This document shows positions 1-64,000 of a stretch of 64,000 nucleotides of DNA, piece by piece (the first letter of the stretch is position 1; the number at the start of each line of letters is the position of its first letter). A program made the translations under genes and the position numbers. The notes under the pieces are model-generated. The model made no database searches, was not told where the DNA came from, and saw nothing but the letters and a program-made list of their open reading frames with translations. Source of the DNA: Cyanidioschyzon merolae (lineage: Eukaryota); the NCBI GenBank assembly GCA_000091205.1, contig AP006502.2; one strand, 5' to 3'.

Positions 1-304
1 TCTCTATATCTGCGGCTATGCGCGTGAATGTTTTCGTGTAGCCAACTCGATGCAAACGCTCCAAGCCTTGGGCTTTGTGCGCCGCTCGCCTCCATCACAA
101 GCCCACACCTTCCACAGTCGCATCTCGCGCTAGAAAGCCCGAAACTTCATGAAAGGACTACGGTCGCGCTTCGTCGTCTGTACCGTGACGTGCGCTTGCG
201 CATCTGCGGCTCGCCATGTATGGGTTTTTTCGATGACAAAACGTTTAGATTGACCATGGATCCCAGAATTCGGGATGGATAATGGCTTTCGGGCAGAGCC
301 TCCA

Positions 305-510
305 AGATGAAGCACCTACCTTCAAGCTCCATTACCCATACCTCCTCTCGGATATACTGGTCGCTTCGTATGTTCTATAGTGCACCGAGTGCCTGTTTTG
401 AGCACCCGCCTTGACGCTTATACCGCTAAAGCAGATGCCGCACGGAGACAGAACGGCTTTGCCATACCACTGAGGGCGTCGGCTCGAGCGGAGGCGCCAT
501 GTACGTGTGC
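305..510. repeat. dispersed ~200-bp repeat, copy 1 (homologous to 11805-11975)
   Basis: Direct nucleotide alignment with copy 2. The shared blocks are …cccatacctcctctcggatatactggtcgcttcgtatgttctatagtg… and …gacagaacggctttgccataccactgagggcgtcggctcgagcggaggcgcc…. Confidence 0.7.
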
Positions 511-10701: not shown

Positions 10702-11804
10702 TTTGGTCAGCGACCCTGCATGAGAGTCACACTGCTGCGAAGGGTGTTCTTTTTTGGACGAATATTTCCTCTGTTCTGTGGGTTCGGATGCGACGAGCGA
10801 GCTAATCAAGCACGCGATCGACGTACCGCATGCGAACAAAATGAACTGTTTCTTCATCGGGATGTAGTATACCGGAGAGCGCAAGTTTCTGTATTGGTGG
10901 TATCCTTCATACCGATGAGAGCATCGCCACCAGGGCGCCATTTGGGGCATCTGGATGATGCAAGGCTTCCAGGGTCGTTCCGAATTGCACGTGACTTTCC
11001 CATGGACTTGATGTCCGGAGCACGGTTTTAGCGCAATGTCCTGCACACGCTGGCAGCTGAGCTTCAACGTATCGATCCGGTATTGCAAGCAGGCCCAGTC
11101 GCAGAAAGCACGCCAAGGCTGGAACCGCTGCGCATGGAGCTATTCGCACCCTCTAACCGCTTCCCTCCAGGTATGATGCAGCCATTGGTACGAGGTCTTT
11201 CCAGGAACATTTCGCAGAAAGGCCCGGTCAACCGCATCACACGTGCCGGCCGCTCAGACGCGCGCGGGTACCTTCGCAGGCAATTTTGTCCCAGTTTGCA
11301 AGTCGCCAGCACAAGTGACCCCAAAGACAGCAGCTTCCCTATACTCGCTGTCACAGTGGCTTCTCCATGGTAAAACCCGTGGTTTGGCACGCAAGTTCCT
11401 CGGTAGCAGAGCATCTCAGTCTTTGAAAGCGGGTCTATCGCCGCGTTTGCAGTACGATCGCAACCACAAGAGCATCCAACGCAACACGCAAAAATCAGAA
11501 CGCTCGAAGCGATCCCACAACTCGAGCACGCACCTGCAGCTGCACCATGCCGAATCTGGACAGTGCTCGCATACCTGCACGCACAGAGCTGATACTGCAA
11601 TCCCGCCTTAAATTGACCCTATCTAACCGTTCGAGCTGAACCGAGTATGAGCTGTCCATAGGGAGCACGCATGCCGACACGTGTACGTCCTGGGCAGCAG
11701 CACAGATTTTTTCATTGACAAAACATTTACTTTGGCCAGCGTTCTCCGATTATGCGCATTTTTCTTTTATTTCTTCATGTTTTTTTTTCAGTGCGCGGTG
11801 AAGT

Positions 11805-11975
11805 ATCCATCAAACACCCTGCCTCCAAGTTATATGACCCATACTTCTTCTCGGATATTCTGGTCGTTTCATACGTCCTATCGTGTGTGCCTAGTGCCTG
11901 CCGAAGGCGACAGAACGGCTTTTCTGTACCACACAGAGGGCGTCGGCTCAAGGGGCAGCACCGATGCATGCGCGC
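11805..11975. repeat. dispersed ~200-bp repeat, copy 2 (about a 40-bp deletion relative to copy 1), ~150 bp upstream of the CCT-alpha ATG
   Basis: The shared blocks here read …cccatacttcttctcggatattctggtcgtttcatacgtcctatcgtg… and …gacagaacggcttttctgtaccacacagagggcgtcggctcaaggggcagcacc…. It is in the same orientation as copy 1. Confidence 0.7.
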
Positions 11976-22814: not shown

Positions 22815-24130
22815 TCAGATGAGAAAGGAACGCTGAACTGCTCGAATAGTTCCTTCATTGCGATTGGTAACGCAGCTCCTATTAGGTTTACAGCCACGAG
22901 ATTCGAGGAATAGCTGTAAGGACATACGGATTCGTACTTAGGTTAAGGATTCTCGTTGGTTTCTCCGAGGTCGCTCATTCCAATCTATCCGTTGGAATTC
23001 GTTTCGTCACCGGAATCAAGGTGATTCGCGATGCCCACGAACAAGACTCCCTACAATAATGTGTTTTTTACTAAATTTGTACGTTGAAGCCTCCGCTCCT
23101 CTCAGCTCCTTTCGGATAGAACGCTCAGATGACGCATTTTTCAAGTGTTTGATCGTTCTGTTCAGCGGCAACTCGTAGGCACAGCCATGCGCACCACCGG
23201 AATGATGATGAAAGAAATCGATGTCGTTTCTTCTCGACTTGTTCACGAGTTCATGTTGAAAGTTCACTGAAAACGTCATCTCAAATCATCCATTCCGCTC
23301 AGAAGAGAAATCCTCCTCTGTGTCAATCGCCGAAACTACTTGCGACAGCTCAATGATAACTCGCACAAGATACGCCGAAAGCGGATTCCGCCTCCTCTCT
23401 TTGCACGGGAAAGCATTCCGGAGACGTACATTAGTCATCGCAGCGATTGCTTCTGGAGTAGTGAGCGTGATCACCTTGTATGAAGGGCGCGTAAACGGAT
23501 CGACCGTTCTCGACTCGACCTCTAGCCGGCATTTTTCTTACCATTCTTGTTCTATCGTGGATAACATTTCGTTCCACAAATCCTCTATCGAATTGGACGG
23601 CGTGCGCTTGCTCGTGCATCGGTCAGAACACTCGATGCAGAGAGCCCTGGAGAAGCCCGAGATCGTCACAGATCGACAATGAGTGCGAAAAATAAACAAA
23701 ACACACTGAGAGAAGCTCTGTACACCCCGCCGGCGCTTCTATCAAGCGATGGGGCAAGCGTTGACGGGCTCTCACGTGGCCCTCCACAGATGACGTCTAT
23801 TGGGCAAATAGGAACACCTGCGCAAAATCAAGGAGCGTGGGTGCGAAACGCGCATCGAGACTTGATATAAAAGTAAAAAACGTTGCAAGCGAAGCCCAGA
23901 TTGCAGCTTTTGGCAGTGCATCGAATGCGTCGACACCAGCCGAAAGCAGCAAAATCGGGCCCTGAACGCGACTTTCAAAATCCTTCAACTGCGAACATCG
24001 GGAATAGAGTGAAACTAGAGACCAGCGTATACACAGACGGATATGAGAGAGCGGAAACGGAAGTAGTTGAGGAAAAACGCTCCGGAAAGCCACTCTTCAT
24101 GACCTTGGAAACAGACCCAACATTTTGAGT

Positions 24131-24660
24131 CTACATCCGAGGTCGGTGCGCGGATCGACCCATGCCTCGCTCCGCTTCCATTTCATTCATCGATTCTGCG
24201 ATTACGACGATAGCGTGTATGTCGATAAACCGACCTGCAGACGCTTCGCAACCTGTTTTGACCGGTTGCATGGTATCGATTTCAGCTTCTCCTCGTAGAC
24301 TTCGACCCGGAGAGGCTGCCCCATGAAGTTTGCTCGCGCCATCTCCGCAGGTGTCGTCCTCTGCTCCGTAAAACGTCTGATATTTATTGCAGCATTGACG
24401 TCTCGATTCACGAACTCCATGCGTTTTTTTGCATCTGGTCGAACTCACCTATGCAAGGATAGCGGAAACTCGCGCCACCTGTCTCGTCTTCGTCCTGATG
24501 ACGACGTACTTTTCTCACCTATGTTTGCTCTTCTTCTTAGATCCATGGTCGGCGAGAAGAGGATTATTTCCGTTACTTCTTCCAGCCGACGACACCGAGC
24601 CTCCAGACTCCTCTACCTAGATGTCCATCACTTTCCTGTTTTAATTCCAAAACGAACCCA
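24131..24660 (-). mobile_element. 5'-truncated fragment A of a Fanzor/TnpB-like (RuvC-fold, OMEGA-family) transposon-encoded nuclease gene. It keeps RuvC-III and the C-terminal tail.
   Basis: The minus-strand ORF 24202..24420 encodes KKRMEFVNRDVNAAINIRRFTEQ…NFMGQPLRVEVYEEKL. The nucleotide block tgatatttattgcagcattgacgtctcgattcacgaa (24377-24413) aligns with the copies at 34781-34817 and 60888-60924. Upstream homology runs to about 24650, then is lost. Confidence 0.6.
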
Positions 24661-26394
24661 CGTGGAGCGCTTCTGTTATAAACCGCTAAAAAGCACTTGA
24701 ATACGCTCACATGTGGGTTGAAACACAAACGAACGTAAAATCTATCATTTGCTCTGACTTCAACGCAAAAACATCGTGTACGTTCGAGCAGTACGCTAAT
24801 GAACAGGATCGTGTTTCCCCGCGACGGCGAGATGCACGTCCTCTCTCATGCCTGCCAGATATGGAGGTGCGCGTATCGAGTGCGCTATATAGAAAAAAGA
24901 ACAGAAACGAACCAGTAATTAGCACGAAATATCGATTTCTTTCCTCCTCAGAGCCAAGCGTTAAACGGGGAAAATTGTCCATGTTGCCAAGAGTTTATCT
25001 TATAGGCGGCAAGTCCCGCGACCTGGACGCTTCTGTCGGGCCGGTGATTCATGCTCCCACCAGTGGCGGGTGCAGTGGCGAGATCTGCGCAGCTCGTCCG
25101 CAACGCCGTTTATTCGGGGATTAGGGGCAGATCGGCAGCGTCTGCGCATCGCCCTGGTCGCTGTGGACTCCTAGTATGTCGTTTCGGGTTACTGCAGACA
25201 GTAGGTCTGTCTGCGAAGCTGACAGGCTCCCAGCATGAGGATGGACGCCAACTCCACGTCAGGTGAAGCATTCCGCGATCCGACACCCTCAGTGGTGAGG
25301 CGAAGCCGTTCCATCCCCGTGTGATGCATCCGCATCAGCGGTTGAGACGTTGCGGCGGGTGCCTCACACAGGTACTCGGCGCACGATAGAACGTACCATA
25401 CGACCAGTGCATCCGAAAGGAAGCATCCATGATGGAACATGGAGCTAGAGTGAAGAGCATTGAGCGTTATCATTTATTTCCATGCATATCCCGCGACCTG
25501 GGATCTCCATCGTCGACGCATGCGTTTTTCCAACGGAACATCGATTCGCAGCATCTATGTGGACTTTGCTATCCATAAATCAACAACTATGGGCAGCATC
25601 GAGAGCCGCCCCCGTGGACGCGCAGCGGTGCGTCAGCGTCGTCGTCACCGAAATCAGCGGAGGATCCAGCGCGGCTCCGCCCAGATACATCCCCCGAAAC
25701 CTGCCAGGGACGCGTCGATCCTGAGCACCAGTGCCTCTTCAGGGCGCGTTGCTATCTGGTAGACGTCGGTGCCAGTTCGCACGAGCCTTCTGGAAGCACG
25801 CTTATCCGTACACCGAATATACGGGAAGCCGGTGGCGGATGTATACGCGCTTCTTCCTGTGTGGCAACAGGCTTCACTGACACACGGGCGCTGTGTGGAA
25901 CGAGGATCAACAGCGGCGGCGGCAGGGTGTGTGACTAGCGCACCGCTGCCAGCAGCAGCTTTTCCTGCAGCCGCTCGGCAGTGGGGTCCTAATTGGGGTA
26001 TCGCTAAGCAGCGCTTTCCAGGAATCTCTGAATCGACGATCATATTTCTGTCGCTCCCGAACGTTCGCGAAGCAACCCGAGCACGTAGCGGCCGCAACGA
26101 GCGCAGAAGCGCAAGCGGCAGCTTTTTGACAGATTTCGGGACCTCTGCGTCGGTTGTGCGCCGTACATAGGTCGTCATTAAGTATTACGTGTGACAGAAA
26201 AGTCAACTTTAGAGGTGAAAAACCTCCAAACGACACAGACACACACAGACAGACGTCGAAGCACTGTTAAGACTGGTGTCTTCACTTGGCGGACTGGGCT
26301 CCCGAGTGAAACATCGGGTAACAGCCAATTTTTCACGGACACAAGTGCACGACACTCTTAACCGCTGCGACTTGGACCAGTGTTGCGACCGTAA

Positions 26395-29124
26395 ATGGTG
26401 CCAAACCAGGCACCAGCGTTACACTGGCCACCGCGAACCATCGACGCGTCCGCACCGTCTTCTTTCGTGTTCGAGACGAACCCTGCGGGAGTCAGCTCCG
26501 TGAGCGACCTTTTCACCAGCGATCATGATGTCCCGTTCCCCGATGGATCGGGATTTCTCTTCCCCAAGACGCTGCATTCGGCGAGTACCGAGAAAATACT
26601 CGAGCCGCTGACACAGCTACACCCGACAGGGCAGAGAATGCCGAACGAAGTACCTCTTCGATCTGCATCCGCTGACGGCGGTGTTTTCCCGGGCAATGAG
26701 CTGTTTATAGCGGCAACAGATGGTAGGGAGCTTCCGTCGGTGCCTGGTCGTCGACGCCTCGAATCTGAAGTGGACGAGCTTGCGCAGTTGATCAAGCTCA
26801 GCAACGAGGAGCATCGATCGGTGCAGCAGCTGCTCCAAGCGGAGCCGTTTATGGGCAGCACATGCGCTCTCGCCGAGGCAGATGATACCACCGCCGATGA
26901 CCATGCAGGTTTTCTGATCAAGAATCACGGGTCGGACTCGACGTCTGACTTGTCGGCGCTGCTGCTGACACCCGCTCGCGGGACAAGAGCGCCCACCATG
27001 GCTAGCCCTGGCACGCCGAGTCCACAATCGCCGCGCAAGTCGCATGCGCTGGCATCGCCAGCAGCCAAGGAGCAGGTCACCGCGTCGCCGCAGGCATTTG
27101 CACCGAGTCAGGGGTATCTAGGGACGTCCGCTGCGGCCCGTGTGAGAAGCAACCAGCGTCCCGATGCCAGTCGCACATCTGCAGCACGCAGCGTCGAGGG
27201 CCAGCACCGCGTCGAGCCCCAGAACGAGTCCACTGCGAAAGCACGCCCACGCAAGTCACAGACAGAGACGCGTTTTGTTCACCCAGAGGTGCATCTACCA
27301 AATTCGGGCTTAACGACGCCACCGGAATCTCCCGGAGCGAGCCCGAGTCAAGTACCGGGCGTTCGTGCAGCGTCCGGCAAGAACGCGCTGACATTGCCAG
27401 CGGAGAGCGTGCCCTCGAAGCGTTCCGAGTCGCCGAGTAGCGAGCAGAAATCACCTTCACCAAAGTCGGATGGAGCTGGTACCAACGGTGCAGCGGCTTC
27501 CGTTGATGAATATACGCTACGCAAACGGGAAACACACAACTTGCATACTCGCGTCTCGCGGAAGAAAGTCTCGCAATGCTTCGAGCGACTCGTGACCGTG
27601 CTCACTGCCGATTGTGCAGTTGAGGAATCCGAGTTCATTATTTGCAATGAACTGGACGGAGCCTGCATCCCGGAACAAAGCATGATCTGCGCCTGCTGTG
27701 GACTTGACGGCTGCATGCGTCAGGATTGCAGGCAGTGCAAAGCGCCCACAAATACGTCCACAACTAACACCAATAACCAGCACGCAGCGCCTGCCTCGGG
27801 AGTAGACACACCGCCCAGTGTCGCTGCCGGTGACGTGTCGGCGGATAACGCGGACCCGAAAGCGCTCCTCACTGCGCCCGGTACCTGTTGTGGCTGGCGT
27901 GACCGTTTCATGCCACGTCGGGAGCGAGCCAGGGCGCTTCGAGCGCGTCTCCGTCATCGCGCAGAGACGCTCCAGTACGCAACACAGACCATTGTGCTGC
28001 TGCGTCGACAGCGTCGCTCCCTGGAACTTCTCCTGCTCCACGAATCGGAGTCGTTTCGGCGGCTCTGGGTGCAGCATCTGGTGGAACAAGTCCAGGGTGG
28101 TCAGCAGAAACCTCAGGATGAGCAAGTCGTCATTACAGAATGCTGCAAGTCAGTGGTACGCGCGGTGCTCGAGCAGTTTCACTGGCCATTTGGGGAGCTT
28201 TGGATGCTTGGTCTTCCGCCGCCGTCGACCGACACCGACAACGACAACGAGAAGGAGGCCTGCGCGGAACAACCCTGCGTTCGTGAGGGTACCGCGTCAG
28301 CGTCGCAGCGTCGGCAATGCTCCTGGGATACACTCCAGCATCAAGCGACGCTGATCGTGCCGCCACCTGCCGAAGAAACCGGGTATCTGGATCCATACTG
28401 GATGCTAGCGCTCCGTCCAGACAAAGCGCAAGCGACAGATCCACCTCTGCCCGATCTACTTGAGCGTCCCAGTGCCGTTTCCGAGGCGCGACTCGGTACC
28501 GAGCGTGATCCAGCCGCTCCTCCCGTTCGTGGAGATTGCCCAGCCGACTCACCAAGCACACTCCTGTCCTCTAGCGGGGTATCGAGTTGCAATGCCGCAG
28601 ACGATCCACAACCGATGGCAACGAGTAGCAGCCGCTGCGCTGGCGGCTGCTCGGAATCGCTGACGAAACGCGAGCCCAATCCTGAACTGGACCAGAGCGC
28701 AGCACTGCTCACTGATCTGGAGTGCTTTGCTACTGAGAGCAAGCAGGTCCTTGCCCATCCATCGACGACGGATATCCAGAACCTGGTGCTTCGAGATCAG
28801 CGAGCTATTGGTGCCCGTCTCCGGGCCGGTGCGTTTGTGGAGTTCGACCCCCGGAGCGGCTCGGAGCGCACGTCCATCGCTTTCGAGAGAGCGCCGCTCG
28901 CACGGAGACACAACTTGCGTTGTCTGGTGGCGATACCGCTGCTGACCCCGGTTCACAGCGCACCGGACAAGCGTCCGCGTCTTTCCAGCGCCTCCGAGTC
29001 ATCGACCAGTATCCGGGGCGTCGCGGTACTGGGTCACGTCGAAGCGGATGCCGCTGTGCAGCCACTGCTCCAGACACTGGAGAGCCTCTGGCAACATCTC
29101 ATGGCGACGTTGGCTCGTGACTAA
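26395..29124 (+). CDS. hypothetical low-complexity Ser/Pro/Ala-rich protein with a central Cys cluster and coiled-coil segment
   Basis: 909-aa ORF whose ATG was verified, the only long frame in a 2.7-kb stretch. No recognised domain; the Cys cluster is MICACCGLDGCMRQDCRQC. Overlapping antisense ORFs are treated as GC artefacts. Confidence 0.4.
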   Translation: MVPNQAPALHWPPRTIDASAPSSFVFETNPAGVSSVSDLFTSDHDVPFPDGSGFLFPKTLHSASTEKILEPLTQLHPTGQRMPNEVPLRSASADGGVFPGNELFIAATDGRELPSVPGRRRLESEVDELAQLIKLSNEEHRSVQQLLQAEPFMGSTCALAEADDTTADDHAGFLIKNHGSDSTSDLSALLLTPARGTRAPTMASPGTPSPQSPRKSHALASPAAKEQVTASPQAFAPSQGYLGTSAAARVRSNQRPDASRTSAARSVEGQHRVEPQNESTAKARPRKSQTETRFVHPEVHLPNSGLTTPPESPGASPSQVPGVRAASGKNALTLPAESVPSKRSESPSSEQKSPSPKSDGAGTNGAAASVDEYTLRKRETHNLHTRVSRKKVSQCFERLVTVLTADCAVEESEFIICNELDGACIPEQSMICACCGLDGCMRQDCRQCKAPTNTSTTNTNNQHAAPASGVDTPPSVAAGDVSADNADPKALLTAPGTCCGWRDRFMPRRERARALRARLRHRAETLQYATQTIVLLRRQRRSLELLLLHESESFRRLWVQHLVEQVQGGQQKPQDEQVVITECCKSVVRAVLEQFHWPFGELWMLGLPPPSTDTDNDNEKEACAEQPCVREGTASASQRRQCSWDTLQHQATLIVPPPAEETGYLDPYWMLALRPDKAQATDPPLPDLLERPSAVSEARLGTERDPAAPPVRGDCPADSPSTLLSSSGVSSCNAADDPQPMATSSSRCAGGCSESLTKREPNPELDQSAALLTDLECFATESKQVLAHPSTTDIQNLVLRDQRAIGARLRAGAFVEFDPRSGSERTSIAFERAPLARRHNLRCLVAIPLLTPVHSAPDKRPRLSSASESSTSIRGVAVLGHVEADAAVQPLLQTLESLWQHLMATLARD

Positions 29125-29512
29125 AGCGAGCGTCCATTTATGAAAAACTCGTCACAAGCATGACGAGTAGCGCGGATCGCGAACATAACAGGAAAAGCGG
29201 TTCACATTGTGGTCGAGACTGCGTCCAGGTTGATCCACAACAGACCTCGGCTCTCTCGCTTGCTTCTGGTGCGGTTCCGAGTGCTCCGAACGGCGACTCG
29301 CTGGGCAGCTGTGGTAATCGAGTGAACGAGCGAGCGTATCCACCGCCGTTGCACCAGAGCGTTGCCATTCGCACCCGGTGTACCTTGGTGTCGAAATACG
29401 GTTGCTTTCTGGAGGCGTCCAAACGTGCACCGCAAGCGCAAACCGCCGTGCCAGCGCTCCATGTCACCACACCCAGTCGAGGTTTTATGGATGTTCAGTG
29501 CTGCCCACGGAT

Positions 29513-31546
29513 TCAGGACGCTGCGCTGCTTCTTCGGCGTACCAGGCGGCGGGTACGTCCCGGTTCAAGTCGAATCAGCACCGGTTCATCGGCTTCGACG
29601 CTATCCAGACGTGGCGACGAGGCCGTGAAGTCTGCTGGCTTGGGTGCTGGTTCGGCAACATGCTCTGACGAGGAGCCTGCGCCAGTTCGACGGCCTTGTC
29701 GCTGGCGTTTCGAAGCAGTCTCCGGTGAAGATTCCTCTACAGTTCGCGATGTCGACGCCTTGGTCGTTGTGTTGCTCTCGGGCAATACGCGGAGCTTACA
29801 AACAAAGAAACCATCCATGTTATGCACATGTGGATAATAGCGCCGTGCCTCCGCGAGGCTCGGGTGAAAGCGTTTCTCCCGAAAGCGGATGAAACCTGGT
29901 AAGCCGAACGGGATACCTGTTGAGACCACTTTCACCCGGGAACCCAGTTTGCGCAAAACATAATCGACTACTTCCTCATTTTCGTCGACAAGGATGCTGC
30001 ACGTCGAATAGACAACAACGGCTCCCGTCTCACTGCGTGGGTTGCACGCATCGACCGCTGCAAGCAGAAGTTGTTTCTGGAGGTAAACGCAACGTCGAAT
30101 GCTCGCTTCATCCCGTGTGTGTTTGATGGATGCATCATGTGCGATGACCCCAGTACCGGTACACGGTGCGTCCAGCAGCACTCGATCGAAAAAGTGACGG
30201 AATCCGCCGTGCTCAGACGGGCTCCCATTCGCCGACTTTGAGAGCGTCCTTCCGTCCAGGCTCATCACGACTGCATTCGGTACACCGAGACGTTGGAGGT
30301 TCGCAACGAGCGCTTTGCAGCGTTCCCGATTCACGTCGTTGGCAAAAAGCAACCCCGTACCTTTCATAAGCTGCGCGATATAGGTGGCCTTGCCGCCCGG
30401 TGCTGCCGCCATATCCAGAATCCGTTCGTGCTCGCGCGGTGCGAGTGCCATAACGGGTAGGAAACTCGCAGCCGCTTGAATCATGTAGTAGCCGGCCAAA
30501 TATTCCGGTGTTGCGCCTACCGGTACTTCGCTCTGGTAAACAGTGAGCCCGACAGGCGACCAGGAGCCGACGGGATCTACATTCATGCCGCGAGCAATGA
30601 GCGCCATTGCGAGCCGCTGTCGCCGCACTTTCAGCGTGTTGGTGCGAATGACCAGGGGTCGGGGCGACTCGTTCGCCTCTATAAATGCAAGCAGCTCCGT
30701 AGGCGGGAAGAGTTCCGCAAAACGCTGTGCTAGAGAAGGCAGGTAATCGTACGCTGCGCAGATCATTTCCAATAGCTCGGTAACCAGCTCTGATCTACTT
30801 CGTGCGCCTTTCCGCTGGGGTGCGGGTTCGCTCAGCTCTTGAACGCGATTCTGAATCGCTTGTTTCAGTTCCTCGAGGTGTCCTGGACGCATTGCTGCTG
30901 GTGCTGCACCTGACGTCCACGCAGCAGCATCGTTCGCATCGAGATCGTGCTCAGGTTCCTGTGGAGAGGCCTTCGATGCGGCATCTGTGGCAGCGTCAGC
31001 GACCGCAAGCGGCTGCGTGGCCGCATACTGCCGCATGTGCCTCGCCAGGTACTCGTCTTCGTCTTCAGAAGTACTGACTCCATCATCTGTAGCATCACTG
31101 AGGTGCGTTACTGGAAACGCGTACCGCTCGACGTCCTCGGAGTCGGTCGACGCGTGGAACGGCTCCGGCGCCACCGTCGACGCGTCGAATGACCCTTCTT
31201 GGTTGAACGCGAGCCTATCATCGTTTTGAGGCTTCCGTTGAAAGATCGACATATCCTCTGAGTCTGAATCGGTTTGATTCGGGTGCGCTGTTTCCGACGC
31301 AGCTGCTTTTCGCTTCGCGGTATGAGCAGGCAGCTGCTCGCGAGAGGCGTCGCGCAGTTTTTCGTCTGGTTTGCTTCGAGATGGAGCGCGCAGCTTCCGA
31401 TCTGCACCGCTTGGTACTTGAGAAACTTGCTTGATCTCATGACGCTTCTGTTTCTGCCCCAGACGGAGTGCAGACGCTGACTGAACGCCCGAAGCGCCGC
31501 GTCGCCCCGCGGTGCGCTTCACTCCCGTAGAGAGGCGCCGAACCAT
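29513..31546 (-). CDS. NOP2: NOP2/Sun-family 25S/28S rRNA (cytosine-C5)-methyltransferase (nucleolar protein NOP2)
   Basis: The SAM-binding motif DMAAAPGGKATY is present, as are motif IV with catalytic Cys (LLDAPCTGTGV) and motif VI (VYSTCS). The gene has an acidic/Lys-rich N-terminal nucleolar region. The ATG at 31546 was verified. Confidence 0.9.
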   Translation of the reverse strand: MVRRLSTGVKRTAGRRGASGVQSASALRLGQKQKRHEIKQVSQVPSGADRKLRAPSRSKPDEKLRDASREQLPAHTAKRKAAASETAHPNQTDSDSEDMSIFQRKPQNDDRLAFNQEGSFDASTVAPEPFHASTDSEDVERYAFPVTHLSDATDDGVSTSEDEDEYLARHMRQYAATQPLAVADAATDAASKASPQEPEHDLDANDAAAWTSGAAPAAMRPGHLEELKQAIQNRVQELSEPAPQRKGARSRSELVTELLEMICAAYDYLPSLAQRFAELFPPTELLAFIEANESPRPLVIRTNTLKVRRQRLAMALIARGMNVDPVGSWSPVGLTVYQSEVPVGATPEYLAGYYMIQAAASFLPVMALAPREHERILDMAAAPGGKATYIAQLMKGTGLLFANDVNRERCKALVANLQRLGVPNAVVMSLDGRTLSKSANGSPSEHGGFRHFFDRVLLDAPCTGTGVIAHDASIKHTRDEASIRRCVYLQKQLLLAAVDACNPRSETGAVVVYSTCSILVDENEEVVDYVLRKLGSRVKVVSTGIPFGLPGFIRFREKRFHPSLAEARRYYPHVHNMDGFFVCKLRVLPESNTTTKASTSRTVEESSPETASKRQRQGRRTGAGSSSEHVAEPAPKPADFTASSPRLDSVEADEPVLIRLEPGRTRRLVRRRSSAAS

Positions 31547-32199
31547 GCCGTGTGCGAGTTGAACAAAGCGGAGACCAGTTGAAACCTGGAAACCCTTTCG
31601 GAAACTCTAGTGAGAAGCGTGCGTGCTCGCCAGCGCACGCCGATCGGTTCCTGGTTAGAAGCGCGTCGCTCAAGCGGTTATAATGGAGCGGCGAAGGAGC
31701 CGCAGGTCTGAGCGCCACCCCTGGGTCCCGTTTCGAGTGAAAAGCGTGCAGTGCTCTGCGCTACCTTGACAGCAAACGAGTAGCTTTTCAACGGAGGGCA
31801 ACGAATCGTTTTCGGTGCTTCAGAGCTCCCTCGAAAGACTATCACGAACCGGCACCAGTGCAGTGCGGTACACGGCGGATACAGTTCCATAGAGCGACAC
31901 CGTAGCGGACGCCGGCGGTGCCCCCCGGCCGTCGTGGCATGTTTCAACGAGGTCCGAGTAGAAACGACCTCTTTTTTGACTAGTGCTGCACGTTTCCCGG
32001 AAGTTTCGGGGGGAAAAGTCAAAGTCAGTGTTCTGATTACTGAGGATCGCTTCGGATAGACGTCGTCAGAAAAGCTAAGCTGTACCTTTTGGGTATCTGT
32101 AACGTTCTCACCTTCCGAAGTGTCCAGTACGACGTTGCAGTCCTAGACTTGAAAGAAACCGCTTTCGATCTCGGCTTGCTCTGCAACGATCGCCGGCGG

Positions 32200-33729
32200 A
32201 TGATTACCACTCTGTTTTGGGTACCCCGCGGGACAGCAGCAGCTGCTGCTTCTGTGCCTCTGGAGACTGCAAGTGAACCTGACGACGCCGCATCGCACTC
32301 GTCTGAGGACTGCTCAGACGGAGAGCGCACCAGCGATGCTGCGGAAGTGGGCCTTGAGCAGGTGCTCACGCTTCCAGACGACTTTTGGGAGACTAGTGAT
32401 CCAAACTTGCACAAGCACAAGCTCGACTGGGAGCAACAGGACATTGAAGATGAACGCTTTCAGCAAGAAGACTGGGTTCTGTTTGCGGGGCGTCTCTACG
32501 AGGACGACAGTTGCGGCTTTGAGGTATGCGTCGTGGAGCGCCCTGATGTCGAGTGCTGCGCGAAGCCGCTCTCATGGGAGGCGATCGATACCAATATTTA
32601 CGTCCATCATGATGGCATTCTCGCAGCACCACCGCTGAGCAGCGCATACACGGACTATGATGGACGTTGCCTTGCGGCAGTTGGCACATTTGCACCCACT
32701 GTAGAGCTCTGGGATCTCGTTCAAATGAATGCAGTAGAGCCGTTGATGATTCTGGACACCGTGGCTGCCGCTCAAACGAGCCCCTCTCTTGGACACAATG
32801 CCGCAGTAAAGCAGCGAACGCGAAACGCACAGCATCGCTTGACCCGGGATCTCCAACGAAAACGAAAGCGGCCCAGTGGAGATCGTAGCCAAGGCGGCAG
32901 CACCGCCGCTTCTGCATCTGGAGTGCTTTGTCTGGGCTTTCATCCCCGAGAGAGATGGATGCTCGCTGCCGGCTCTGCGACTGGTCATATCCATTTCTGG
33001 GACATTCGCGACGGAGCCTGTGTGGTGACGCTCCCCGACCTGCATCGCGACAAGCCACAGGCGCTGGCGTGGCACCCGCTACAGCACAGTCTTCTACTCA
33101 CCGCCGGTTTCGATCGACGAGCTTGTCTGGTGGATTTACGAGCGCATTCACTGCATTCAGCGGCTTCGGGAGAGATCCAGCTGACTCGAGACCCCGAGCA
33201 GGTACTCTGGCGCTCCGAAAACCAATGCCTGCTCAGTGACGAGGGCGGCTCCATTAGCGCCTTCGACATTCGCCGGATCGGGAAGACGGAAACCGCACTG
33301 CTCTGGAGCTTTCAAGCTTGTCGAGATCGGCCAGCATTGATGACACTTGCACCAACGGTTCCGGATATGTTGGTGGTCGGCTCCACGGATGGCCATTTGC
33401 GGGTCTATGATCTCTCGATGCTGGAGCATTGCGGTGGTGTCTCGGCTACAGAGGCCTCCAAGGCACCGCAGTGGACGCCACTCGCTCAGGTGAACGCACA
33501 TGCAGGCGCTCTGTTCGCGGTGGAGTCTTGTCCAGATGAGGTTTTCGGCTTCGGGGTGGCGTGCGGGGGCTCCAAGGGCATCTTGACAGTTGTCGATGTC
33601 GCTGAGAGCGCTCCGCAAGTTCTCCAGCACTTTCGTGGGCGCGCCTCAAGATCCGCTGCTGAAGTAGGTGCTCGTCTAGCTTGCATCGATTCGCTGGAAG
33701 AATCCGGTTCACTTGACGTCGACAAGTGA
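32200..33729 (+). CDS. PWP1: periodic tryptophan protein 1 (PWP1) homologue, WD40 repeat protein
   Basis: Blocks match PWP1: IYVHHDGILAAPPLSSAY…VELWDLVQMNAVEPLM and the WD repeats (…GHIHFWDIRDG…, …GHLRVYDLS…). The N-terminus MITTLFWVPRG resembles PWP1 M..VTCVAWVRCG. The ORF-track start at 32089 is TTG. Confidence 0.7.
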   Translation: MITTLFWVPRGTAAAAASVPLETASEPDDAASHSSEDCSDGERTSDAAEVGLEQVLTLPDDFWETSDPNLHKHKLDWEQQDIEDERFQQEDWVLFAGRLYEDDSCGFEVCVVERPDVECCAKPLSWEAIDTNIYVHHDGILAAPPLSSAYTDYDGRCLAAVGTFAPTVELWDLVQMNAVEPLMILDTVAAAQTSPSLGHNAAVKQRTRNAQHRLTRDLQRKRKRPSGDRSQGGSTAASASGVLCLGFHPRERWMLAAGSATGHIHFWDIRDGACVVTLPDLHRDKPQALAWHPLQHSLLLTAGFDRRACLVDLRAHSLHSAASGEIQLTRDPEQVLWRSENQCLLSDEGGSISAFDIRRIGKTETALLWSFQACRDRPALMTLAPTVPDMLVVGSTDGHLRVYDLSMLEHCGGVSATEASKAPQWTPLAQVNAHAGALFAVESCPDEVFGFGVACGGSKGILTVVDVAESAPQVLQHFRGRASRSAAEVGARLACIDSLEESGSLDVDK

Positions 33730-34579
33730 CCGAGGGAGGCAGCGCTCAGCGCACAGCAGGTGCGTTTGCATACTGCGATCAGGGCCGCGATGTCTATAAC
33801 TGCACTACTGGCGCTTGCTCCGTTTGCGATCAGTGTATCCGAATCGCACTGGTATACCTGTGTATTGAGAGGCTCGACGGTCATCGTAGCGTATCACGAG
33901 CACATATGCTACTCGTCGAAAGCTGCAAACTCGTGATTTATGCGTCGTGCGCGTGTATCCTTCGCTACTGGCATGAGGCTCGTCTTCAAGCGCTGACGCT
34001 AGGGCTTTTGACGCATTCAGCGTTCTGGAGATACCGCCTGATAGCGTGCGTGCCGCTGGCAACGTAGTCCCTGTTGCCACCCGTAGGCGGTTGGGTTCCT
34101 CGAACTCGCTCAGGCATCCGAGCTGGCGATCATTGTCGATTGTTACCGACGCTACGCATGGGAAAAGCCGACCAAAGGCTGGTGCCAAGAACCAAATCGT
34201 TGCGAACGGGGAGTGCTATTCGCCCAGACAGCATCACAATCGGAAGCACCAGCAACACCGGCACCTGAAGGCATTTCGTGTTCCAGGAAAGCCATCTGGG
34301 TGCGTGTTTGTTCGAGTTCCTGGCCAGCAGCTTTGCTTTATCGGTTTTCCGGGCAGCCGCAAGCCTACCAAAATACGGGTTGAGCTCGCTCTGGGGCGAT
34401 CCGCTACGCTGCAGCCTTGCGAGCTGCAGGAATCCGTTTGAAGACGCAAGCGCTACCAGCCACAGACGGAGGAAGCGGTGTGAAGCGCTGCACGTGCACC
34501 GCTCCTAACGCCCAGGAGCACAAGGCCGTGGAACAAGCCTTCCGTCCTGTCCCTGCAGTACGAGCGAGCGTTCGGCAAT

Positions 34580-35012
34580 ACACGTCAACAGAAGGATAAA
34601 TGTTTCAAAACCATGACGAGTAAATCTATATACCCATGCGCTGACGCCTCCCGGAACTTTTTGACCAGCCGCCTGCTATCGGTCTCAGTTTCTCCTTGGA
34701 CACTTCGAGACTTCGAGGCTGTCCGAGAACGTTCACCTGCGTCAGCTCCGCGGGTCTTTTCATGAGCTCGGCACATCGTCTGATATTGATGGCGGCATTA
34801 AGGTCTCGGTTCGAAAAGCCCATGCGCCTATCGCCTCTGCTTGAAGTCACCCAGGCAGGGATTCCCAGAACTCGTGCCCGCCGTTCCATTTGATGCTCTG
34901 TCAGCGCTCCCTGCTTTTCTATCGCCGAAACGCTTCGCTGCCTTTTCTCCATATCGACCTTCTGAAATCTACATCTCAGCTCATCCCTTAATTTCTCTTA
35001 AATGAACGCACT
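34580..35012 (-). mobile_element. 5'-truncated fragment B of the same Fanzor/TnpB-like element family (RuvC-III plus tail)
   Basis: The minus ORF 34626..34952 encodes DELRCRFQKVDMEKRQRS…LTEHQMERRARVLG…RMGFSNRDLNAAINIRRCAEL…NVLGQPRSLEVSKEKL. This is colinear with copy C (HELGCTLQRVEMEKCQRS…LTEERMERRAKFRG…RMEFRNRDFNAAINIR). The nucleotide block 34781-34817 matches A and C. Homology ends at an in-frame TAA near 35010. Confidence 0.6.
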
Positions 35013-36333
35013 TGTTCTTTAGATACCCAAGTGGGAACCTTCCCTGATCGACACGGATATGCAGAAGAGGGGCGAGGTGTGCCCCGGTGTGTCAACGTTT
35101 GCTGAACGCTTCAGCGATTCGTCCAGAAGAGCGATGATTACGTTTCGCAATAGAAGACACTCCTTCGAAGCGGTTCATCCGTGGACAGTGCGGAGTAATG
35201 GAAAGCAGCTCTATTTCGACCGAATCGGGAAAAGCGAAAACTCAAGCGGAACGGTGAAGTGCCACGTTGGTCAATGGAAGGACGTCTACAGATTTCACGG
35301 GAAAAGTCTTCAATGATTCGATCAAGTGGTTGGTTCTGTTGTATGTGCCTGCTGCATGAGCGGAACTGAGGCCGCCGAATGCATCCACCGCAGCTAGAAC
35401 AGACGATCATGGCCTCGTTCTCTTCGAGTTCGATCCTACATACAACAGGTTCGTTCTCCGCCAATGCCGATATACGCCCCGACCGCTTCATCCGGAGGAA
35501 CTCTCATCGACTGGAAAAACAAACCGACTGGCCTGTGCTTTATGCCGATAGCGGGTTCCAGGAATTCTGCTGTTGCGATTTCGTTCTAAGTTGGTCGTGC
35601 GTAAACTAGGACTTTTTTGCGACTGTATCCCGATGTTTTCAGGACCACACGAATTAGCTGGTGACAAACAGAGACGCCCTTGGCGGCGACGATCTTCGGT
35701 TTTGCCTTCCGCAAAAGGGGATCAACGGGTTGTTTTTGAAGCATCGACCGCAAGCAGTCTCTGAAAATATCGGTTTCTGGCGCGAAGCGCATCTATTGCT
35801 TTGTTTCAGTGTTCCTCAAACGTCTGCCTACTGCGGTATTTCTGAGCGCAATAAGGGATGCAGTCCTCGTTACACTGTTCAGTAAATATTATATCCTACA
35901 GACAACTCGTCTACAATCCATAAACTATATCGCATCGTGATTTCGATCCTCTGCTATCCATTGCGGCCGGCGGGTGCAACAAAATCGTCATGAAATACTG
36001 CAATGCTGAACGTGTCCGAGTACTGTCCTTATCAAGGCGGAATTGGACGCATCTCAGTCGGCTTTGTCGACGCTTGTTCACACTGATGACGAGCATACCT
36101 TTCGCTGCAGTGACGAGCGAGCGCAGCGCGTGCCCGCGGTGCTTGTCAACTGGGGCTCCGTGGCACGCGCTGACACCGGCATCGCTTTCATTGTCCACAT
36201 GCGACAAATCCTTCATCGCAACGATCTCATCGAGTCAAGGGATCGAATGTCTCCGTTTACCGTAACGCAGAACGTTGTCTCCAGATCCAGTACTGCTTTA
36301 CGGGGGCGTCGAATTCTAAGGCAAGCATCTCCC

Positions 36334-38993: not shown

Positions 38994-39053
38994 GTCTTTC
39001 GAGTCGGTGATATTCCACGCACCTGGGTCTGGAATATCACCGACTCGAAAGAC
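38994..39053. repeat. perfect 24-bp inverted repeat separated by a 12-nt spacer (60-bp hairpin-forming palindrome) in the IDH/RabGGT intergenic region
   Basis: Left arm gtctttcgagtcggtgatattcca, spacer cgcacctgggtc, right arm tggaatatcaccgactcgaaagac. The right arm is the exact reverse complement of the left (read directly). Confidence 0.8.
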
Positions 39054-60508: not shown

Positions 60509-60739
60509 TTTCGCTGCAGACAGCGGAATCCAGTTGCACAGGTCGCTCACGAGCAGAGGGACCCTGTTCGTGAGGAATGGCGCGCCCAAGTGCCGGCGCC
60601 CGAGCAGACGCTGACGAGGCGGTGATCCCAGCGGCTTTGCCAGCTGGCACCAGCAACAAGAAACGCCTTTCAAAAGAAAAACGTTGTCGTCGGTGGTGTA
60701 CAGTAGTGGCGACCAGCGCCCTAGACAAGAAGTCTCTAA

Positions 60740-62900
60740 CTAACGTGCAGACGCCTCCCTCTCTTTTTGGACCGGCCACCTACTGCTACTTCCAATTTTT
60801 TCTCATATGATTCAACCTTAAGAGGTTGGCCCACAAAATTCTCTATTGTCACCTCCGGAGGTCTCTGATCCATCACCGCGCATCACCTAATGTTGATTGC
60901 GGCGTTAAAATCTCGGTTTCGAAACTCCATCCGTTTCTTTCCATTGATTGTACTTACTAATGCAAGCAGTCCTCGAAATTTTGCTCTCCTTTCCATTCGC
61001 TCTTCTGTCAGCGGTCCGTACTTTGCTCTGTTCTCAGGGCTCCTCTGGCACTTTTCCATCTCCACTCTCTGAAGTGTACACCCCAGCTCATGGTAGGTAT
61101 ACAACGTTCGAAACTCATCTACAGGTATCGTAGCGAAACGCCGTGCACACTCCTTGTACGCTCTCGTCGTTGGAGCTGGCGTGGTCGCTTTCTTGGGCGC
61201 CTAGCGCCCTGCTCCGTATGCCACTACGAGCCTCTGACTTTCATTCTACTCGAGGGCGCTCAACTGGCTGAAAAAGATCGCGAATGCATGCTGCTTCCCA
61301 CAGTATAGATGCATTCGCAGAGGAGCCCACCGGGACTTTGTATACTCTTTCCGCAGCGCCTCCCAATATGCAACACGAACTTTCATGAATTTCCGAAAAG
61401 CTTCAAATTCCGCTCCTCGGCTAGTCACCTCGCTCAAAAATTCCAGGTGCTCTTTCAATCCTGCATTCCACGTCTCAATTTTCTTCCTTGCGTTTATCAT
61501 ACCGGATTCTCGATAGTATCTCGCTCTCGAGAATCTCAACAGACGCATGTCCTTCTGACGTAAGTTGCCGTCGTTACCATCTTCCCCACGCTTCGGTGCT
61601 GTGATGGTGATGATATTTGTGTGGCCGGGGTCCGCGCCAACGATAAAATCGTTCTCATGCACTTTCTGCATCGCAGGATTCGCCTCCTTCTCATCTTCAT
61701 GCTTCGTCACGGCCGCAGCCGAAGGCGGAACTGGACGATCTGCCTGCAACCGCCGATAGTGAACACACTTGGATACTTCATTAGTTTCGATCACCCCCAG
61801 TAAATACCTTTTGTTTGCTGATTTTGAGACGTTTGAAATCGAAGATATTCCCCCAGTACGTCTCCCGGTTTTCGCCGGAGAATTCCCCCCTGCTAACACT
61901 GAACTCGGGACTGATCTCCTTCATGATGCCAGGAAGGACGCCGGAGTCGATAGTCACGAAATGTGACTTGATATTGCACAACGAAACCACGTTGAAGCGC
62001 TTCCCCATTAGGACAGCCTTCCGTCTCTCCCACTCTTCATTTGTCTCTTCACTCAACTTCATTTCCGCCTTGCGTTCGAGCTCTCGGTCCAGAAACACGA
62101 AATAGCGCAGGACGAGGCAATAGTATCTTTCCTTCTCTTTTTTCAACGCTAATATCTTGTCTGTTGGATTTGCCAGCCCCAGTACGGCACGGTGCTCTCG
62201 TATAACCGCACGGATTAGAGAAGCTTCATTCGTGCTCCTGCGTGATGTCTTCTCTCCGACGAATTCGATCTGATCTTCATGCTTGCGATCGTTCGTGATG
62301 CCATTGATAATCGCCCATTTTCCATTGCGAGAGATGCTCGGGTAGAGCGCAAACACGGCGCGTATCATGAAACGTTCGAGGTTTACGATCAGATGGTTCT
62401 TAGGGTTCGCGGGGTACTTTTTTTACACCGTATTCGTAAATGCGCCAGTCACTCCTGTATCGAGCACAGCTGAAGGGTATTCAACCTAACTTTCGTGGAG
62501 GCGTGCACGAGGTCATTCCTCCTTGACGTTTCCCCTGTGTCAAACATCAGGTGACGAATAGAGGTCCTGGTGAAAAATTCTTCCCGATCTTCGACTCTTT
62601 TGAGGTCTGTTACGTCTTCGTACAGCTCTTTCTCCAAATGCATCAGTCCTGAGGAAGCGTTACAGACGCTGCTGGAGTACGTCTCGATACGGTTTCTGAT
62701 GGCCTCTTGCAACTTTAGCTCGTACGCCTCTTTGGTATGCTGAGAATGTCTCCTGGGCTTATGCTTCACGCTCTCCCCAGTGGCAGGTGCTTTAGAAAGA
62801 TCTGGGCAGCAACACGTCCGCAACGCAATTCATTCTGCGACTAGGGGCAGTTAACCCGCGTCCGGGCGTCGCTCTAGTCGCAGTGGACTTCTATAACAAC
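60740..62900 (-). mobile_element. near-full-length but pseudogenized Fanzor/TnpB-like (OMEGA-family, RuvC-fold RNA-guided nuclease homologue) gene of a eukaryotic transposon. It spans about 690 codons across at least 3 reading frames and carries 3 in-frame stops in the C-terminal half.
   Basis: RuvC-I is ENDFIVGADPGHTNIITI (ORF 61246..61899). The conserved block RAYKECARRFATIPVDEFRTLYTYHELGC matches the TnpB Y-K-x-x-x-G…V-D-x-x-Y-T-S-x-x-C zinc-finger region. RuvC-III is RMEFRNRDFNAAINIR at 60886-60930, followed by a TGA stop and then a still-conserved tail (ENFVGQPLKVESYEKKL). In-frame TAG stops lie between the blocks (…SALE*NESQRLVVAYGAGR*APKK…). The upstream ORFs 61781..62368 and 62449..62823 are in other frames. 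Confidence 0.65.
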
Positions 62901-64000
62901 GCTTCGCGTTGTTGTGGGCAGTAATTCTATCAGCACAATTTGCTAGTTCCTGGAATGATTATGCGCCCGACCCCTTCTCAGATGAAGCATTCCTCGTTCC
63001 GACGCCCTCATTGACACAGTAAAAGCCGTTCTGTCTCCGTGATGCATCTGCACCAGCGGTATAACTGCTACTGCGGGTGCAGCCAGGCAAGCACTCGGCA
63101 CACGAGAGAATACACGAAACAACCAGTACATCCGAAAGAAAGCATAACTAATGGAACCTGGAGGTACGTTGCAGCATGACGGATGATTTTTCCATTCCGA
63201 ATGCCCATCCATGCCGCAATCCGGCATCCACGGTCGATGGAAACGTTCTGTCATCGGAAAACAAAACTCAGCTACAGCGTGTCGGGTACCGGGCATCCCC
63301 GTACGGCCAGCAGCGGGGCTTCCGACGCTGCAGGGGGCGCGATCGTCGTCGCGTTCCCGCGAATCCCCGATGAAAGGCGCGAGGCCACCTCAGCCGCCAA
63401 TTGACATCCAGCGGATGATGCGCGACGGCGGCACTAGGGGATCGTTTCTTGAACATTTTCAAGCCACTGGGCGCCAGCGACGGGAACGCTAGGCGAAGCA
63501 CTCGTAGGCGCTTGTTGAATCGGTGCGTCTTGGGTGAACGGCGCATACTTGCAGGTAATCGGACTGCACAGAGAGCGCAAGACGCTTGGACTCGAGCAGC
63601 AGCATCGAGGCACGTTTCTCCAGCTGTGTCGAAGAACGGGGTTCGACGGGGCGTTTGAGGCTCACTGCTGCACGCCCACTATTTTATTTGATTGCGCTGT
63701 TTCCATAAAAGTTGCTTTTGGCACAGCGTTGGGTGTCGGCGAGCACCAGAAGAGGGCTTTCGTCGAGATAGAAGCGGGGCTATTAGCGAGCTCGTGAAGT
63801 TTGCGCGTTCAGTTCGCGACGCGGGCGACGTTGCCTCGCCATGGTGTCCAACCTTCTACCTGTGCCTGCTCCGAGCCAGGCACACGCACCATCGATGCAT
63901 CTTACTTTAATGGAGCGGTTCTGGCGCGTTTGCTTTCTCGTTCGATGTTTCTTCAACAGCGTAAGAGAGCGAGGATTATACACCACATCGCGGGTACGGC

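Follow-up and report, generated by a model that had tools for sequence, protein, structure and literature searches.

The window analysed here, 64,000 nucleotides of Cyanidioschyzon merolae (contig AP006502.2, chromosome 20), contains a Fanzor-like gene at 60.7-63.3 kb and, near 24 and 35 kb, two fragments that share its 3' end. Why should this end have been kept at two further loci? The explanations weighed below include ordinary 5' truncation, retention of an omegaRNA-like unit and deletion from within the element. As shorthand, 24.2-24.5 kb is referred to as locus A, 34.6-35.0 kb as locus B and 60.7-61.1 kb as element C.

Comparison of the window with itself (BLASTN) aligned A 24207-24476 with B 34610-34878 (68% identity, E 7e-32), B 34615-34984 with C 60724-61091 (64%, E 5e-34) and A 24228-24457 with C 60738-60966 (63%, E 8e-17). 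Together with a three-way alignment these matches bear out the proposal, made in a sequence-only reading of the window, that an alignable block is common to the three loci: identity is 63-68%, far above chance, and the sequence is not of low complexity. The minus strands encode NRDxNAAINIR, as that reading held, followed by a GQP...EKL tail: A translates as MEFVNRDVNAAINIR...NFMGQPLRVEVYEEKL, B as MEKRQRS...NRDLNAAINIR...NVLGQPRSLEVSKEKL and C as MEKCQRS...NRDFNAAINIR*...NFVGQPLKVESYEKKL. Equally sound was the view that A and B are pieces of genes from the Fanzor-like family to which the 60.7-63.3 kb element belongs, alike through RuvC-III and the C-terminal tail. The upstream homology around MEKxQRS was drawn too widely: it holds for B and C, but not for A, where 3' homology begins ~30 codons before the motif. 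A and B do occupy the two largest gene-poor gaps; these ORF-poor gaps (22.2-26.4 kb and 33.7-36.3 kb) are repeat islands. The elements have T-rich flanks.

Family assignment made use of the CMe-1A consensus (3169 bp) and the CMe-1 protein, both from the supplements of PMC3627910; the window's own ORF at 29513-31546 (minus strand), NOP2, is identical to XP_005539239.1 of C. merolae 10D. On their sequences A, B and C are members of CMe-1A, a Fanzor1 family of C. merolae 10D, for which the original description gives ~150 copies, ~80% identity to the consensus and neither TIRs nor TSDs, the family being left unassigned to a superfamily (Bao & Jurka 2013, Mobile DNA 4:12; PMC3627910). C and the 5' part of A stand at the family's copy-to-consensus level (~80%) within C. 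merolae; A and C also carry the TE-N2-like 5' module published (as TE-N2_CMe) from the same genome, and the protein tail agrees with the published CMe-1 sequence. The 3' parts of A and B, in contrast, reach only 68-70% identity with the consensus and have a shorter and different post-stop tail, which points to an older or divergent lineage (a subfamily). The features are as follows (consensus refers to CMe-1A).

24567..25535, minus strand: 5' part of locus A, consensus 1-967 (BLASTN, 78.5% over 975 columns, E = 0), comprising a TE-N2_CMe-like module (1-635), the leader and the first ~20 codons, with an ATG and a stop three codons later; contiguous with many metagenome copies.
24516..24566, minus strand: degenerate N-terminal coding remnant and deletion junction of locus A, consensus ~1030-1075 joined to ~2800-2815 (alignment through the junction, consensus mapping).
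24202..24515, minus strand: 3' ORF remnant of locus A, consensus 2801-3093 (BLASTN, 68%, E 2e-34), with stop TAA at 24204-24202, RuvC-III NRDVNAAINIR at codons 24413-24377, and one in-frame TAG and one frameshift, upstream of MEF.
34985..35983, minus strand: 5' module X of locus B, a non-coding repeat with the native CMe-1 leader at its end (alignments); the leader, 35014-34986 (~consensus 870-898), is joined directly to consensus 2737.
34599..34984, minus strand: 3' ORF remnant of locus B, consensus 2737-3084 (BLASTN, 70%, E 1e-51), with an open 108-codon frame at 34952-34626 (MEKRQRS...RMGI*), RuvC-III NRDLNAAINIR at codons 34817-34781 and a short subfamily-specific tail that ends ...GGTTTTGAAACAT at ~34599.
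60664..62739, minus strand: Fanzor1 pseudogene of element C, consensus 1089-3169 (BLASTN, 86% over 2084 columns), with two frameshifts, four in-frame stops, RuvC-I (GADPGHTN) at ~61640, RuvC-II (VDEFRT) at ~61110 and RuvC-III at 60924-60888.
60664..60720, minus strand: post-stop terminal module of element C, main family (alignments; nhmmer E 2.8e-15), with a GGCG...CGCC stem, a conserved CCGCCACTACTGTACAC block and the terminal hairpin CGTTTTTCTTTTGAAAGGCG.
62748..63256, minus strand: TE-N2_CMe-like 5' module of element C, consensus 1-499 (BLASTN, 76.6%, E 8e-103); consensus 500-1088 is deleted, start codon included.
231..488, plus strand: solo TE-N2_CMe-like 5'-module fragment, consensus 1-255 (87%, E 5e-74).
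11796..11953, plus strand: solo 5'-module fragment, consensus 60-256 (BLASTN).

Element C and the family consensus carry the RuvC-I D, RuvC-II E and RuvC-III D motifs in order (GADPG, VDEFRT, NRDFNAAINI); A and B retain RuvC-III only and are therefore fragments of genes rather than Fanzor genes. A profile of the family protein matches Parasitella parasitica Fanzor1 (PDB 9cf0, E 5.6e-14) across RuvC-I and RuvC-II/III; the profile was needed, a PDB search with the single family protein having given no match. When the conceptual protein and the peptides of A and B were scanned with Pfam and NCBIfam, no significant family was returned: PF07282 touches the NRD motif below threshold in the Pfam scan and is present in the distant relatives P0104-P0106. 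The CxxC...CxxC zinc finger between RuvC-II and RuvC-III is absent from CMe-1 and the motif is degenerate family-wide (CMe-1 reads TSYTHHELGC...C...ALVSTTSDGKK, against TSKCCASCG...RRCDSTDC in relatives such as P0104), a matter that is relevant to nuclease competence and not to homology. Reassignment of a stop codon, suggested by a TAA at the Q of GQPL in L001 and L002, was considered and rejected, because each in-frame stop of C is one base away from the sense codon of its relatives and because host ORFs read in the standard code.

What, then, adjoins the conserved ends? A and B had been described as 3' ends alone, 400-500 bp of the gene. The ORF segment is in fact shorter – ~290 bp in A and ~350 bp in B – and both loci hold a 5' module and leader besides, so that each measures 1.3-1.4 kb: ~1 kb of 5' non-coding module, the native leader and the last 290-350 bp of the ORF. 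In B the leader, AAGTGCGTTC.TTT..A.AAAT.AA, adjoins the junction, and upstream of it lies module X. This module aligns at 68.5% over 908 columns with L077 943-1837, in which a full-length Fanzor ORF follows it; it also matches L024 112-672. A check of modules X and Y for coding capacity found none in either. A 5' module and leader, broken just before or after the start codon and fused to the tail of the ORF, is the signature of internal deletion. Under 5' truncation A and B would be dead-on-arrival or later-truncated copies of which nothing but the final few hundred bp had survived. The ORF tail is indeed all that can be recognised inside the limits that the sequence-only reading set for the two loci, and a solo 97-bp 3' end (consensus 3073-3169) exists in L012/L029; the junction alignments nonetheless contradict this explanation, for the family's 5' leader is fused to the tail, with ~1 kb of 5' module upstream, and the 3' pieces do not abut unrelated flanking DNA at a unique breakpoint but share their junctions with other loci. 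We regard truncation as very unlikely.

The recurrence of the junctions bears on how the deleted forms spread. The A-type junction is present also in L033/L057, L076, L031 and L024 and the B-type junction in L014/L022, all metagenome contigs, and no flank homology was found among the copies that share a junction. Since the A and B junctions recur at unrelated loci in related contigs, the deleted forms spread after the deletion. Breakpoints of the deletion lineages fall at consensus 2506, 2665, 2737 and ~2815, and each lineage keeps at least ~290 bp of 3' ORF, within a metagenome census that was anchored on the RuvC-III peptide and is blind to copies lacking the 3' end. Hits in the metagenomes number at least 495. 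Retention of the 3' end across several independent deletion lineages is compatible with a cis-acting requirement there.

Taken together, these data make it probable that A and B are decayed, non-functional, internally deleted and non-autonomous derivatives of CMe-1A. One deletion per type would have taken most of the ORF (~consensus 1075-2815 for the A type, ~898-2737 for the B type), so that what remained was the final 290-350 bp of the gene, attached to the 5' non-coding module and the leader. These shortened elements would then have reached other loci, presumably mobilised in trans by the mover of the full-length copies – we know of no transposase for CMe-1A – and would have drifted neutrally after the spread. 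Three observations count against this account. One is the retention, noted above, of at least ~290 bp of 3' ORF in several independent lineages. Another is that the modules upstream of the A-type junction differ: A has the TE-N2-like module and L024 has X, while L033, L076 and L031 have neither; the history of the A type may have involved a single deletion together with exchange of modules or recombination. The third is the uninterrupted 108-codon frame of B directly behind the leader, which could be chance or a hint at a mini-protein.

The latter would make B a domesticated 108-aa protein, with a RuvC-III motif and basic tail, expressed from the native Fanzor leader. Its frame (34952-34626) is unbroken in the reference as well as in three strains, and its ATG is the first after the retained leader. 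The paralogous copy L014, on the other hand, has lost the ATG and gained an in-frame stop; dN/dS between B and L014 is 0.66; changes between strains in the B ORF are four non-synonymous to three synonymous, one of them an A>V replacement within the conserved NAAIN motif; and B, having neither RuvC-I nor RuvC-II, cannot be a nuclease. A mini-protein at B is thus extremely improbable.

The block is conserved because it was once coding: measured against the family consensus, dN/dS comes to 0.26 (A), 0.20 (B) and 0.15 (C). Comparison of the derivatives with one another gives 0.41-1.33, with changes even across codon positions. The remnants of A and B are moreover among the most polymorphic segments between strains, with 22.7 variable sites per kb in the 3' part of A and 20.8 in that of B (from small counts of 7 and 8 sites), against 1-6 per kb in genes, in three strains 99.5% identical to the window; in the tail of A five of the five strain changes are non-synonymous. 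A and B are under no present constraint: they are dead relics of a known family. The three-way similarity would accordingly date from purifying selection that acted on the Fanzor protein until the deletions occurred, not from selection on RNA.

Selection on RNA is what the third explanation requires. In this explanation the derivatives spread by keeping a guide-RNA gene or right-end signals, A and B are guide-RNA loci now or were so once, and the unit would extend into the last ~100 codons. There is a precedent in the 134 ORF-less 'ghost' Spu-1 loci of S. punctatus, which have an omegaRNA region (PMC10432273), and at least four independent deletion lineages of CMe-1A keep at least 290 bp of 3' ORF. 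Four-fold-site divergence is lowest at consensus 2946-3065 (0.128 vs 0.216 elsewhere, p = 0.04, in a window chosen post hoc), and the terminal hairpin of the main family exists in two mutually compensated versions. Synonymous-site constraint across consensus 2737-3107 is, however, not significant (p = 0.3), and the hairpin belongs to a part missing from both loci. In the main family the stop is followed by a conserved 62-nt module with hairpins (alignments, folding), the profile of which matches C alone in the window (nhmmer, E 2.8e-15); a longer profile meets A and B at coding positions only (E 0.1 and 0.5). The 3' tails of A and B are short, that of A diverging a few nt before the subfamily end.

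Searches for structure were likewise negative or weak. Rfam gave no match at E <= 1 on 22.0-36.5 kb, which takes in A and B, or on 60.3-63.4 kb. The fold z-scores of A and B are -0.4 to -0.5, and for A, B, C, the consensus and mini-element tails together MFE z-scores of -0.03 to -1.5 show no excess stability. Covariation, a search for which had been proposed with the original reading, does not exceed shuffle controls even in 40 main-family 3' ends: RNAalifold recovered only a 4-bp invariant stem, and two hand-drawn structures of three to four hairpins, derived from the consensus itself, gave 74-76% pairing and covariation no better than shuffles. Add to this that A and B have the highest strain polymorphism of the region, and retention of an omegaRNA unit at these loci finds no support; we consider it improbable. 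The premise that the scaffold overlaps exactly this 3' end of the ORF was also too strong, not being general for Fanzor1. The likeliest candidate for an omegaRNA scaffold, or for a cis-acting end, is the post-stop module of C.

The discovery value of these loci is small, since family, host, copy number, decay and the TE-N2-like 5' module were published in 2013; the passages of PMC3627910 used here make no mention of internal-deletion derivatives, an alternative 5' module X or shared junctions. What changes is the interpretation: the fragments are probably internal-deletion derivatives and not truncations, and the conserved block reflects inherited coding constraint and not an RNA signal. A Fanzor1 omegaRNA is to be sought after the stop codon, where C has a conserved module and A and B have none. 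The alternative 5' modules, the shared junctions, the two compensated hairpin versions and the T-rich flanks could guide a search for the CMe-1 guide RNA and for the mechanism of mobilisation.

Among known systems the ghost Spu-1 loci of Spizellomyces punctatus are well conserved, with 30-nt inverted repeats and a 75-nt omegaRNA region resembling the one in the full element (Saito et al. 2023, PMC10432273). A and B resemble them in being ORF-less, non-autonomous relatives of Fanzor1, present at several loci with both ends of the element kept; they differ in being 30-35% diverged from their relatives and in lacking inverted repeats and the main-family post-stop module, so that the omegaRNA or right-end region of the full-length element is not retained. 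The CMe-1 deletion derivatives might still be fossil ghosts, improbable as we think this, with a part needed in cis that reaches ~300 bp into the ORF – a guide-RNA gene, the promoter or processing site of such a gene, or signals for transposition at the right end – which would account for every independent amplified deletion lineage having kept that much. Were it so, C. merolae, a genetically tractable alga, would offer a natural deletion series for the cis-requirements of Fanzor1.

Other parallels are the non-autonomous DNA transposons that arise by internal deletion: Ds from Ac, deleted P elements and the precursors of MITEs. Here too the 5' and 3' ends remain, the coding middle is gone, and amplification followed. 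Unlike Ds and deleted P elements, CMe-1A has no known transposase, TIRs or TSDs, and mobilisation in trans is presumed. The MCi-2 Fanzor1 families of Mucor circinelloides (PMC3627910) likewise combine a constant Fanzor-bearing 3' region with variable 5' regions, the counterparts in C. merolae being the TE-N2-like module and X; the MCi-2 copies, 99% identical, are recent, whereas those of C. merolae are old.

Element C, on the minus strand at 60.7-63.3 kb (63256-60664), is a gene with frameshifts and stops, in which the motifs RuvC-I (GADPGHTN), RuvC-II (VDEFRT) and RuvC-III (NRDFNAAINIR) can be read. More than 100 close relatives were found by homology search, nearly all of them from JGI metagenomes and with DUF8286 as sole annotation; a few distant relatives carry a Cas12f1-like TNB domain, and the family profile matched the Parasitella parasitica Fanzor1 structure (9cf0; E 5.6e-14) over RuvC-I and RuvC-II/III. 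One Fanzor1 family of Cyanidioschyzon merolae, CMe-1A, is described by Bao & Jurka (2013; PMC3627910), whose account gives ~150 copies with ~80% identity to a 3169-bp consensus, reports TIRs and TSDs as absent, and equates the 5' 635 bp with another repeat (TE-N2_CMe). The end of the published CMe-1 protein (...MEKCQRSPEDIEKYGALTEEQMERRAKVRG...NRDFNAAINIRRCAVLEKRPPELTRENFVGQPLKVELYEKKLEAVVGGRSKKTGRRLHVSWRRFV; PMC3627910 supplement) is the tail found in the window; since the ORF at 29513-31546 (minus strand) is identical to XP_005539239.1 of C. merolae 10D, the window belongs to the genome in which CMe-1A was described.

Between RuvC-II and RuvC-III lies a CxxC...CxxC zinc finger that is degenerate across the CMe-1 family (SYTHHELGC...C, second Cys pair missing; window ~61100-60960) and kept in more distant relatives (protein P0104): nuclease activity of CMe-1 is therefore in question. 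Directly before RuvC-I, most full-length metagenome copies (e.g. locus L001, 6146-6450) have a 75-bp in-frame tandem repeat of variable copy number (four units in P0001, one in the 10D consensus) encoding ...KHE(E/D)KKEA.PATQEV.DNDF.VD. In several otherwise intact metagenome copies (L001 ~7258-7260; L002 ~5832-5834) TAA takes the place of CAA/CAG, the codon for Gln in the GQPL tail; proteins called from these copies (P0001-P0003) stop at ...NF(I/F)G, and the 'tail' sequence downstream is still well conserved.

A three-way minus-strand alignment and BLASTN of the window against itself bear out the block common to C and loci A and B: A 24207-24476 matches B 34610-34878 (68%, E 7e-32), B 34615-34984 matches C 60724-61091 (64%, E 5e-34), and A 24228-24457 matches C 60738-60966 (63%, E 8e-17). 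The NRD(V/L/F)NAAINIR motif and GQP...E.KL tail claimed at all three are present in the translations; the upstream MEKxQRS homology holds for B and C and fails for A, the stretch being found only in B and C. The sequence-only reading was thus right to see here two additional pieces of a Fanzor1 family that is already known. Against the CMe-1A consensus (ORF 906-3110) the pieces are as follows.

63256-62748, minus strand: C, 5' piece, consensus 1-499
62739-60664, minus strand: C, main piece, consensus 1089-3169 (86%)
25535-24567, minus strand: A, 5' piece, consensus 1-967 (78.5%)
24515-24228, minus strand: A, 3' piece, consensus 2801-3093 (68%)
34984-34640, minus strand: B, 3' piece, consensus 2737-3084 (70%)
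35983-34985, minus strand: B, upstream module X (~1 kb), a non-coding repeat
231-488, plus strand: solo 5'-module piece, TE-N2_CMe-like
11796-11953, plus strand: solo 5'-module piece, TE-N2_CMe-like

Locus A joins consensus 1-967 to 2801-3093 and is therefore an internal-deletion copy (~1.33 kb). In the consensus the native leader AAGTGCGTTC.TTT..A.AAAT.AA stands before the ATG; when B, L014 and L077 are aligned with the consensus, this leader accounts for the final ~30 nt ahead of the B junction and is joined directly to consensus position 2737 in both B and L014. B (~1.38 kb) is therefore also an internal-deletion copy, and its parent element carried X as an alternative 5' module. The earlier proposal of 5' truncation, with only the 3' end and 400-500 bp of ORF kept, does not survive this comparison: ~290 bp (A) and ~350 bp (B) of ORF are retained, further element-derived sequence lies at both loci, and 5' sequence or leader is fused to the ORF tail. 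Both loci are internally deleted derivatives in a state of decay rather than truncated copies; in A, a stop follows the ATG after three codons, and the sequence shortly before MEF contains both an in-frame TAG and a frameshift.

Because both solo 5'-module pieces end at about consensus 255, they suggest a discrete ~255-bp sub-unit of the 5' module, found alone also in L001, L004, L017, L028 and others. Module X stands directly before a full-length Fanzor ORF at L077 943-1837 (start near consensus 876), upstream of an A-type mini element at L024 112-672, and before B in the window (34985-35983, minus strand): 5' modules (TE-N2-like or X) are therefore either interchangeable, or separate elements landing beside the Fanzor unit. 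A further dispersed non-coding repeat, Y (~57-60% identity), in which a long ORF was not found, occurs in opposite orientations at 22813-24163, adjoining the 3' end of A, and 38245-38985; at least 10 metagenome loci also have it close to Fanzor copies (e.g. L053 6141-7485, L007 3634-5003, L056 858-2010). A 60-bp near-perfect palindrome (87% self-complementary; 38994-39053) lies beside the second Y copy, and an intergenic 108-bp unit is present in three tandem copies (91-95% identity) at 46421-46744.

Scanning metagenomes for the C-terminal peptide gave at least 495 matches, and 79 loci were fetched for comparison. The A-type junction (N-terminal ~35-55 codons plus last ~95 codons) aligns uninterrupted through L033/L057, L076, L031 and L024, and the B-type junction recurs in L014/L022. 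Further lineages have the leader joined to consensus 2665 (L024/L082) or are defined by the 3' part alone, beginning at 2506 (L074/L076); L012/L029 hold a solo 97-bp end (3073-3169). Flank homology among deletion copies was absent, except for one 29-bp match and for module X, which precedes B as well as L024. Every amplified deletion lineage keeps at least ~290 bp of 3' ORF, a weak pattern confounded by ascertainment of loci; that a cis-requirement explains it is very doubtful.

The rival reading is that A and B hold a retained guide-RNA unit. The GtFz1 omegaRNA overlaps the ORF by 17 codons, the guide reaches 14-15 nt beyond the end, and ORF-less "ghost" loci of S. punctatus retain the omegaRNA region (PMC10432273; see also PMC10530073). 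In the main CMe-1A family, C and dozens of metagenome copies share ~62 nt past the stop, comprising a GGCG...CGCC stem, a block of very high conservation (CCGCCACTACTGTACAC) and a terminal hairpin (consensus 3150-3169; window 60664-60684; L053 ~4378-4398). The hairpin has two versions, CGTTTTTC-TTTT-GAAAGGCG and GTTCGA-CTT-TCGAAC, which differ at 5 positions, each internally consistent with a clean stem; the second type (GTTCGA/TCGAAC) has a palindrome, CGACGTCG, just upstream. This module is the natural, if weakly supported, scaffold candidate: RNAalifold returned an invariant 4-bp stem only, covariation in explicit structures did not exceed shuffles, fold z-scores were unremarkable, and Rfam gave no match. 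Against the rival reading, the module is missing from A and B: its nhmmer profile matches C alone in the window (E 2.8e-15), and with a longer profile A and B match in the coding part only (E 0.1 and 0.5). They bear a shorter subfamily-specific tail (...CTATGGTCGTGAAACATTT), complete in B and departed from in A a few nt before its end; any likeness between this tail and the main module (TAC...TACA, TGAAA) is too slight to be judged.

Nor do substitutions favor a retained unit. Measured against the consensus, dN/dS is 0.26 for the tail of A, 0.20 for that of B and 0.15 for that of C, and third positions are in excess, which reflects purifying selection at the protein level in their ancestors; the shared block looks conserved for this reason. 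Among deletion derivatives dN/dS is 0.41-1.33 with changes even over codon positions, so that evolution after deletion was roughly neutral. Four-fold divergence from the consensus does not differ significantly between the retained region 2737-3107 (0.183) and elsewhere (0.216; p = 0.3); the lowest 120-nt window (2946-3065; 0.128, p = 0.04) was picked post hoc, and other windows are similar. Contigs L083-L085 (JGI 3300005573, 3300050356; ENA ERZ27247235) are collinear with window 19.5-41.5 kb at 99.5% identity: near-clonal C. merolae 10D relatives are present in public metagenomes, which makes polymorphism tests possible. Variable sites per kb are 22.7 and 20.8 in the 3' parts of A and B, 9-21 in other repeat-rich or intergenic stretches and 1-6 in genes; the "conserved" motif itself varies (in B, for example, NAAIN has an A>V change), none of the five changes in the tail of A is synonymous, and the B ORF has four non-synonymous and three synonymous. 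These counts, though small, point to no constraint on the A and B tails. The proposed omegaRNA-like unit in A and B is thus supported by none of the tests (covariation, z-scores, Rfam, synonymous sites, polymorphism).

Flanks are T-rich on both sides of C, with ...(G)ATTTTGTTTC / CGATGAC at the 5' end (63257-63270) and GAAAGGCG / TTTGTTG(G/C)TG at the 3' end (60650-60663), a pattern seen at many loci; it could stem from a preference for certain target sites, from a duplication that has degenerated, or from the element being ~10 nt longer. T-rich tetranucleotide targets are described for Helitron-related CRe Fanzor1 families (Bao & Jurka, PMC3627910).

A and B add two pieces to a family already described in the same genome (Bao & Jurka 2013). 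The simplest reading of their deleted forms is that internal deletions recurred and that the resulting non-autonomous forms were then amplified, presumably through mobilization. Internal deletion with amplification of non-autonomous forms, as proposed for the CMe-1A derivatives, is the pattern of classical DNA transposons.
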